In this document: one piece after another, positions 26,970 through 27,069 of the stretch | How the letters are laid out: each line of letters begins with the position of its first letter | How positions within the stretch are numbered: the stretch's first letter is position 1 | Source of the DNA: a virus | Lineage: Duplodnaviria > Caudoviricetes | Virus record (IMG/VR): IMGVR_UViG_3300025809_001850 | Length of the DNA: 64,000 nt | Reading direction: 5' to 3' (one strand) | Program-made: the position numbers and the translations under genes | Notes under the pieces: generated by a model | Told to the model about the DNA's origin: nothing | The model's input: only the letters and a program-made list of their open reading frames with translations | Database searches by the model: none

Positions 26970-27069
26970 TTCTCTCATGGTGGAACTCCTACTCTCTCGG
27001 GAGTTCCACCTTTTCTTTCTCTCACACTCGGTGGGACTTCTACTCTCTCGGAAGTCCCACCTTTTTTTT
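26970..27069 (+). terminator. twin covarying hairpins with T-tracts (tandem terminators or structured RNA)
   Basis: GGTGGAACTCC-TACTCTCTCG-GGAGTTCCACC (26979-27010) and GGTGGGACTTC-TACTCTCTCG-GAAGTCCCACC (27030-27061). Confidence 0.85.

Follow-up and report, generated by a model that had tools for sequence, protein, structure and literature searches.

We found that the twin hairpins at 26979-27010 and 27030-27061 of the window, that is, of the whole 64,000-nt stretch of phage DNA analyzed here, stand directly behind the gene of an AAA_5 ATPase, and that the RNA between and within them is complementary to the leader of this same gene. [quoted passage not shown]

Twin hairpins behind the ATPase gene

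The ATPase gene (25756-26958, plus strand) encodes a 400-aa protein of the MoxR/CobS/dynein type (AAA_5; PF07728, E = 1.8e-17; phrog_249). On the same strand it is preceded by an early promoter cassette (25679-25707) that matches the consensus, with a -35 box TTGACT at 25679-25684, a 17-nt spacer, and a -10 box TAATAT at 25702-25707, and transcription would start near 25714. Such cassettes, composed of TTGACT, the conserved 17-nt spacer, and the -10 box, occur about 20 times in the window. Behind the hairpins, the motif TATATTATATAA (27097-27113, plus strand) runs almost onto the ATG of the next gene (27111) and looks like a late or leaderless-type promoter from which the next transcription unit would start. 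Because the ATPase gene has its own cassette and the next gene its own TATATTATATAA motif, the hairpins would close a one-gene early transcription unit.

Hairpin 1 (plus strand) is formed by the arms 26979-26989 and 27000-27010 around the loop UACUCUCUCG and continues into the tail UUUUCUUUC (27011-27019, plus strand). Hairpin 2 (plus strand; arms 27030-27040 and 27051-27061) presents the same loop and continues into a U8 tract at 27062-27069 on the plus strand. The arm coordinates and the folding bore out what the sequence-only reading had stated about the stems: both consist of 11 base pairs with 100% complementarity (12 pairs if the closing U.G is counted, 7 of them G-C), they differ at position 6 (A-T versus G-C) and at position 10 (C-G versus T-A) with each difference compensated on the other arm, and their 10-nt loop TACTCTCTCG is identical. 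The twin region folds at -48.5 kcal/mol (z = -6.5), a stability reached by none of 200 shuffled sequences, and the loop 10-mer is unique within the window. By our own estimate, four random substitutions over the 22 stem positions fall into two pairs in 55 of 7315 cases; since the chance of finding both differences compensated is thus only about 0.75%, the stems are under selection. That the two 10-nt loops are identical is, by our own estimate, not significant by itself at such low divergence. The proposed selection on structure and loop sequence together is hence upheld for the stems and does not follow from the loop identity alone.

The pair begins 20 nt downstream of the stop codon (26956-26958), on the strand of the gene, and each hairpin has the anatomy of a Rho-independent terminator, namely, a GC-rich stem-loop with an immediate U-tract on the transcribed strand and 3' of a gene. 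The two are the best terminator-like sites within 20 kb, and the only other strong plus-strand terminator-like hairpins of the window (19650-19677, 19855-19880, and 63437-63472) do not carry a CU-repeat loop like that of the twins. This anatomy points to tandem Rho-independent terminators at the end of a one-gene early mRNA. Two other foldings were set aside. The 3' arm of hairpin 1 can alternatively pair with the 5' arm of hairpin 2 (26999-27041; 12 bp, 3 of them G.U), which is a trivial consequence of the duplication, and an outer helix between 26964-26972 and 27069-27079 would require read-through to form. The metatranscriptome runs consist of assembled contigs without ends, strand, or levels, and a gap over 26592-27179 in run X16 carries no weight.

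Close relatives record the history of the pair. Both hairpins are unchanged in three relatives whose ATPase is 97 to 98% identical; the sole variation in these relatives concerns the 5 nt behind the second spacer and arose by 2-nt indels, which are also present in strain contigs. In contrast to this conserved pair, only one hairpin, with a U8 tract behind it, is present in the 92% relative L094 (extended as L172). Its stem is intermediate, with G-C at position 6 as in hairpin 2 and C-G at position 10 as in hairpin 1, and its loop, UUCUCUCUCG, has one base changed from A to U. The simplest reading of these sequences is that the pair arose by a recent duplication of one unit made of a spacer (UUCUCUCA), a hairpin, and a U-tract, and that each copy then would have fixed one compensated change, which is consistent with working terminators.

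The window phage is an uncultured, abundant, giant marine phage that is present in many marine metagenomes. A near relative was not found in INPHARED, and protein-level matches are distant only. Shine-Dalgarno (SD) sequences are nearly absent before its genes, AGGA standing at 6 of 89 starts and GGAG at 4 of 89, and the most enriched 5-mer upstream of the starts is ATATA (21 of 89). TATAT-rich motifs such as TATATTATATA precede the starts at 1708, 27111, 34523, 38551, 44972, 49022, 56525, 59658, and 62337; they end a few bases 5' of the ATG, leaving no space for an SD, and look like late or leaderless-type promoters. Motifs like TATATTTAT come after the hairpin in several relatives (L036, L049, L035, and L047). 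Elsewhere in the window, segments inside the gene of a 958-aa DUF285/LRR protein (11862-14738) are exactly duplicated at a period of 1077 nt (12729-12850/13806-13927 and 12930-12966/14007-14043). The window also contains the gene of a 3-keto-disaccharide hydrolase (DUF1080) and a pair of genes, DUF1549/DUF1553 and DUF1501, at 21894-22568 and 38551-41991. The DUF1080, DUF1549/DUF1553, and DUF1501 families are typical of Planctomycetota and Verrucomicrobiota, and these genes may hint at the host.

Complementarity to the ATPase leader and to other early leaders

Two copies of the octamer UUCUCUCA act as spacers in the 3' UTR. Spacer 1 (26970-26977, plus strand) lies 11 nt past the stop codon and is the proposed post-stop arm of a 5'-3' helix, and spacer 2 (27017-27024, plus strand) is followed by CACUC and then by hairpin 2. 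A third copy (26904-26911, plus strand) is found within the last ATPase codons. All three are the exact complement of the leader box UGAGAGAA (25721-25728, plus strand), which would occupy about +8 to +15 of the transcript and lies 28 to 35 nt 5' of the ATG, away from the SD position. Each spacer thus matches the leader of its own mRNA perfectly over 8 nt, and each loop matches it over 6 nt (GAGAGA).

When the 5' region of the ATPase mRNA was cofolded with the 3' UTR, the predicted ddG was -14.7 kcal/mol, a value reached by 0 of 200 shuffled leaders and by 0 of 300 random genomic 63-mers. In the predicted structure, UGAGAGAA pairs with spacer 2, AGAGAA with the tract behind hairpin 1, and GUGAG of codons 2 and 3 with spacer 1, and both hairpins remain intact. 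The box UGAGAGAA and its 3' UTR partner are invariant in the five members of the window clade (including L092 to L095), while their flanks vary; within these five, the partners are conserved and covariation was not seen. The single base change in the loop of L094 improves the match to its own leader (UUCUCUC with GAGAGAA, 7 nt) and worsens the match to GAGAGU. As a separate observation, transcription of the ATPase leader in very distant relatives (e.g., L046, L017, L129, L142, and L023) would begin with (A)UGAGAGA(A/U), the same tag as in the early cassettes of the window; the tag may be part of the early promoter or of the initial transcribed region of the whole phage group.

The sequence-only reading had proposed that loops and linkers are complementary to the leaders of the early cassette transcripts in general. 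For GA-rich early 5' regions this was confirmed: the 3' UTR is predicted to pair with the 5' regions of all 20 cassettes, with ddG values of -9 to -23 kcal/mol compared to -4.4 ± 2.9 for random 63-mers. The particular motifs named fared less evenly. GAGAGT has 11 plus-strand copies in the window, 7 of them in early leaders, and is carried by only 7 of the 20 cassettes, while GTGAGAGAAA is present in one leader only and is not enriched (7 occurrences with at most one mismatch versus 6.98 expected). An enrichment was found for TGAGAGAA together with its complement (9 observed versus 3.3 expected); early 5' regions contain all 5 plus-strand copies, and of the 4 complement copies, 3 fall within the ATPase 3' end. 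Similarly, 7 of the 13 plus-strand copies of CTCTC in the window lie within 26906-27049, amid a purine-rich coding strand.

The strongest predicted partners of the 3' UTR beat the ATPase leader, as exemplified by the cassette at 44281 (ddG of -22.9), and the ATPase leader itself ranks 7th of the 20 by predicted pairing strength. As modeled, the specificity of the 3' UTR for its own mRNA is therefore weak in this phage. The idea that the loop is tuned to the GAGAGU leader is not supported by L094, in which the loop position facing the U of GAGAGU has changed to U while the early leaders still read GAGAGUGAG; because the loop changed and these leaders did not, the loop does not covary with the generic early leader. 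In a strand test based on duplex energies, the reverse complements scored stronger than the plus strand, a comparison confounded by base composition, since reverse-complementing the A-rich leaders yields promiscuous U-rich strands.

A covarying hairpin in distant relatives and its predicted pairing partners

Searches of viral and metagenome collections with the ATPase protein recovered 160 loci, nearly all with 53 to 58% identity. In most of the distant loci, the orthologous gene is followed by a hairpin that combines a G-rich 5' arm with a large pyrimidine loop. A covariance model seeded with four of these hairpins and rebuilt from 34 (model R2; alignments A5 and A7) matched 34 plus 48 loci, all on the strand of the gene, and we put the family at more than 100 distant marine relatives (e.g., L016:4191-4223, L011:4185-4217, L014:4170-4207, L109:1707-1748, and about 80 other loci). 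In alignments fitted to the model, about 99% of the cells are paired in both sets, compensatory changes occur in 9 of 9 pairs, and the covariation score is 0.81 and 0.91, compared to 0.19 in shuffles; the second set of 48 is independent of the seed. G.U pairs are frequent in the stems when these are read in the orientation of the gene, and 34 of 42 distinct sequences share the loop core TCCTTTC. Among the distinct hairpins, 45 of 73 lie at most 60 nt from the stop codon and 20 of 73 have a U-run. Four of five large contigs (94 to 169 kb) contain one significant copy, always behind the ATPase gene, and the fifth contains none; because the hairpin is single copy at the ATPase site in these four, it is not a general terminator type. 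Neither the window nor any of eight relatives reached an Rfam gathering score, and matches obtained with E values up to 10 were at chance level. A covarying hairpin with the invariant loop UUCCUUUC behind the ATPase gene, for which Rfam holds no family, deserves in our view a description as an RNA family of its own.

The covariance search suggested by the sequence-only reading thus did reveal a covarying hairpin behind the orthologous gene, while the twins themselves stayed below the significance of the model: the best match of R2 in the window is hairpin 2 with 12.8 bits (E = 1.8). The invariant core UUCCUUU(C) is absent from the window loop UACUCUCUCG and from the L094 loop UUCUCUCUCG, and the family loops nearest to that of the window are UUUUACUCCUUUCU in L068 and UUUACUCCUUUU in L051. 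The window nevertheless shares the placement of the family, with the element on the same strand just behind the AAA_5 ATPase gene and after a pyrimidine-rich post-stop spacer. The post-stop UUCUCUC is common to the window and to L016, L017, L040, L044, L046, and others, and in the window, too, spacer and loop are complementary to the 5' UTR of the ATPase gene itself. From synteny, the GGUGG...CCACC stem ends, the pyrimidine loop, and the UUCUCUC spacer, we argue, short of proof, that the twins are homologous to the family hairpin. A natural twin arrangement is seen upstream of the ATPase gene at L051:2581-2648 and L039:2625-2698, where two adjacent hairpins with unrelated stems display the same loop type (CUUUAUUCCUUUCU and UUUACUCCUUUU).

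In the distant relatives, the loop UUCCUUUC complements the unusual ribosome-binding site (RBS) of the ATPase gene itself, AAAGGAA. With crude start and stop calls and perfect-match lengths as the measure, as in all our family pairing statistics, 89% of 76 loci have a perfect complement of the loop of at least 7 nt (mean longest match, 8.4 nt) in the 45 nt upstream of their ATPase start. The corresponding share is 18% at other gene starts of these loci, and the own pairs exceed permuted loop/RBS pairs (P < 1e-4). The ATPase RBS reads AAGGAA, while the general site in these phages is AGGAG; it therefore suits the loop (UUCCUU) better than it suits the ribosome. Three of four loops with CUCC accompany GGAG sites, and the match is lengthened to 13 to 15 nt in some lineages (14 to 15 nt in the L014 and L109 types). 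An AAGGAA-type RBS is found at 68 of 75 loci with the hairpin versus 24 of 54 without it, and three lineages in which the hairpin lies upstream of the ATPase gene have kept the RBS match. In G002 and G005, as far as crude gene calls show, the AAGGAA tag has no clear tie to promoter-proximal genes. The family loop may also resemble the 3' tail of 16S rRNA (B. subtilis-type CCUCCUUUCU); its best partner is the RBS of the ATPase gene.

A second pair of partners involves the bases after the stop codon, which complement the 5' end of the leader in a lineage-specific manner, over 12 nt in L076, 10 nt in L054 and L101, 9 to 10 nt in L009, and 8 nt in the window clade. Own post-stop/leader pairs of at least 8 nt occur in 14 of 133 loci, versus 4.1% for permuted pairs (P = 0.0035).

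In many relatives, the loop also has a complementary AAAGGA(A) box 9 to 21 nt after the hairpin, just 5' of the true SD (GGAG) of the next gene (L010:4224-4250, L119, L117, L135, and others). It could form an H-type pseudoknot or serve as a second target of the loop. As the main pairing this pseudoknot was rejected: the enrichment of the box is no more than about 2-fold (matches of 7 nt or longer in 38% versus 18%; own versus other, P = 0.018), far weaker than the match of the loop to the RBS of the ATPase gene.

Competing explanations, proposed mechanism, and known systems

The twins could be plain tandem terminators, duplicated to raise termination efficiency before the next promoter, with CU-rich loops and spacers that are inherited but functionless and match GA-rich leaders as a by-product of composition. 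We consider this unlikely. Like known tandem intrinsic terminators, they combine a GC-rich perfect stem, a short loop, and a U-tract just past the stop codon, two of them preceding the next promoter. This canonical anatomy, the insignificance of the loop identity at this divergence together with the base that differs in L094, the 2-nt indels tolerated in the region of spacer 2, and the fact that any CU-rich RNA would pair with GA-rich early leaders are all in line with such a view. However, unlike in plain terminators, the loops and spacers repeat a motif complementary to the leader of their own transcript; its exact 8-mer complement is present three times, and 7 of 13 CTCTC copies crowd into 140 nt of a purine-rich coding strand. 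Moreover, a leader-matching, covarying element is deeply conserved behind the same gene in more than 100 relatives, most of whose hairpins are without a U-tract (a U-run in just 20 of 73) and yet have an invariant loop. An explanation at the DNA level, in which the leader and post-stop boxes would be inverted repeats flanking a mobile or recombining ATPase cassette and the hairpins would be incidental, is very improbable. Inverted repeats do tightly flank the open reading frame in many lineages, and the gene lies among promoter-bounded cassettes; but the repeats are situated within the transcribed leader, downstream of the -10 box, and not at the cassette edges, the second pairing, between hairpin loop and RBS, is meaningful only at the RNA level, and both the many stem G.U pairs in the orientation of the gene and the invariable location on its strand speak against it.

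The remaining alternative, a trans-acting RNA derived from the 3' UTR that binds the GAGAG tag of many early mRNAs in the style of cuckoo/CcsR or RsaE/LhrC, or that titrates a pyrimidine-loop protein, appears quite unlikely to us. The predicted pairing with 20 of 20 early 5' regions, several of which beat the ATPase leader, and the location of all 5 plus-strand TGAGAGAA copies in such regions agree with it, and repeated identical loops are the usual design of multitarget anti-RBS small RNAs (PMC4615179). On the other hand, GAGAGT occurs in only 7 of 20 cassettes, loop position 2 has changed in L094 with GAGAGUGAG left unchanged in the early leaders, and the extended lineage-specific matches of the distant relatives (10 to 15 nt) go to the leader and RBS of the ATPase gene itself, the AAGGAA tag not being clearly linked to promoter-proximal genes in two relatives (crude calls). 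Furthermore, such an RNA would be without a separate promoter, given that the hairpins begin 20 nt past the stop codon. The role beyond termination that the sequence-only reading proposed finds support in the deep conservation of the same kind of element behind the orthologous gene. Its sponge for many mRNAs is less well supported: because the partner conserved across relatives belongs to the ATPase gene itself, namely, its 5' UTR, we place a self-pairing mRNA first. Trans action retains some probability because the ATPase leader shares the GAGAG tag with other early cassettes, several of which pair better in silico.

In the self-pairing mRNA that we favor, the unpaired pyrimidine parts (the two spacers, the two loops, and the tract between the hairpins) would pair with the purine-rich 5' end of the same mRNA, so that the finished transcript closes on itself, tail on head. 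Closure would hide the initiation region and/or the 5' end, and the outcome would be either less translation of completed transcripts or protection from 5'-end-dependent decay. The helix would open again whenever a ribosome halts at the stop codon, which lies 11 nt 5' of spacer 1. In the relatives that use SD sequences, the hairpin loop would mask the SD and the post-stop spacer would pair with the 5' end of the leader. In the window clade, which lacks SDs, the pairing between post-stop region and 5' end would have been retained and duplicated, and the loops would have drifted to CUCUCUC, matching the same GAGAGA box. The arrangement of the twins would, on this sequence evidence, be a local form of an old element. 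A broader scheme is doubtful: in a family of marine giant or T4-like phages, the early ATPase mRNA would be self-closing, its tail pairing with its own 5' end and RBS so that it is translated only until it is finished or while ribosomes hold it open, and the duplicate of the window clade, retuned to the GAGAG tag of about 20 early leaders, could double as a class-wide shut-off or buffering RNA.

A close known system is the icaR mRNA of Staphylococcus aureus, whose 3'-UTR UCCCCUG motif base pairs with its own SD region (PMC3868564). In both cases, a pyrimidine motif of the 3' UTR faces the RBS region or 5' UTR of its own mRNA, and in the distant relatives of the window phage the target is exactly the SD of the gene. 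By analogy, the expected result would be blocked initiation and perhaps a substrate for a double-stranded RNase. Unlike in icaR, the gene belongs to a phage, the motif is displayed in a hairpin loop (here that of a terminator) and in a post-stop spacer, there are two separate pairing sites (the 5' end and the RBS), and the system is known here from sequence alone. Additionally, in the window clade the target is not an SD, which this phage nearly lacks, but the leader 28 to 35 nt before the ATG. In the hbs mRNA of Bacillus subtilis, a 14-bp interaction between 5' and 3' UTR modulates cleavage by RNase Y (PMC5737220). Here, too, a long-range helix between the 5' leader and the 3' UTR of one mRNA could govern the access of a ribonuclease to the 5' region; sequences and organism are unrelated, however, and the predicted helix comprises 8 to 12 bp and starts right after the stop codon. 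From the likeness to icaR and hbs, reduced initiation on finished transcripts and/or altered ribonuclease access are the likely effects.

The Cuckoo/CcsR (alpha-r14) small RNAs consist of 2 to 4 adjacent hairpins, each with CCUCCUCCC in its loop (PMC4615179; Rfam CcsR1, RF02791). They share with the twins the adjacent hairpins, the variable stems, and a common pyrimidine loop motif resembling an anti-SD. However, the window has another loop motif, CCUCCUCCC being absent, and scores 16 bits with CcsR1 against a gathering score of 65.3; its element is an mRNA tail and not a free-standing gene with a promoter, and its hosts are not alphaproteobacterial genomes. Terminator loops of E. coli small RNAs are reported to be used for base pairing with the fepA mRNA (PMC11979758). 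This offers a precedent for the loop of an intrinsic terminator as itself a pairing site, as proposed here, but that case is one of action in trans on fepA. Our searches of Rfam and of the literature returned no described phage case of a 3' UTR pairing with its own leader. We regard the twins as terminators that probably double as the 3'-UTR partner of their own leader, with weak specificity in this phage.

Overall, these data point to an old, sequence-flexible rule tied to one early ATPase gene in abundant uncultured marine phages, and the natural covariation is already a first test of the pairing between 3' UTR and leader. Terminator loops and post-stop spacers should not be written off as neutral. 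If the reading is true, the element would be a compact, portable module of posttranscriptional control and a new RNA family for the catalogues, and it would offer a means to decipher how early genes are regulated in phages that defy cultivation.
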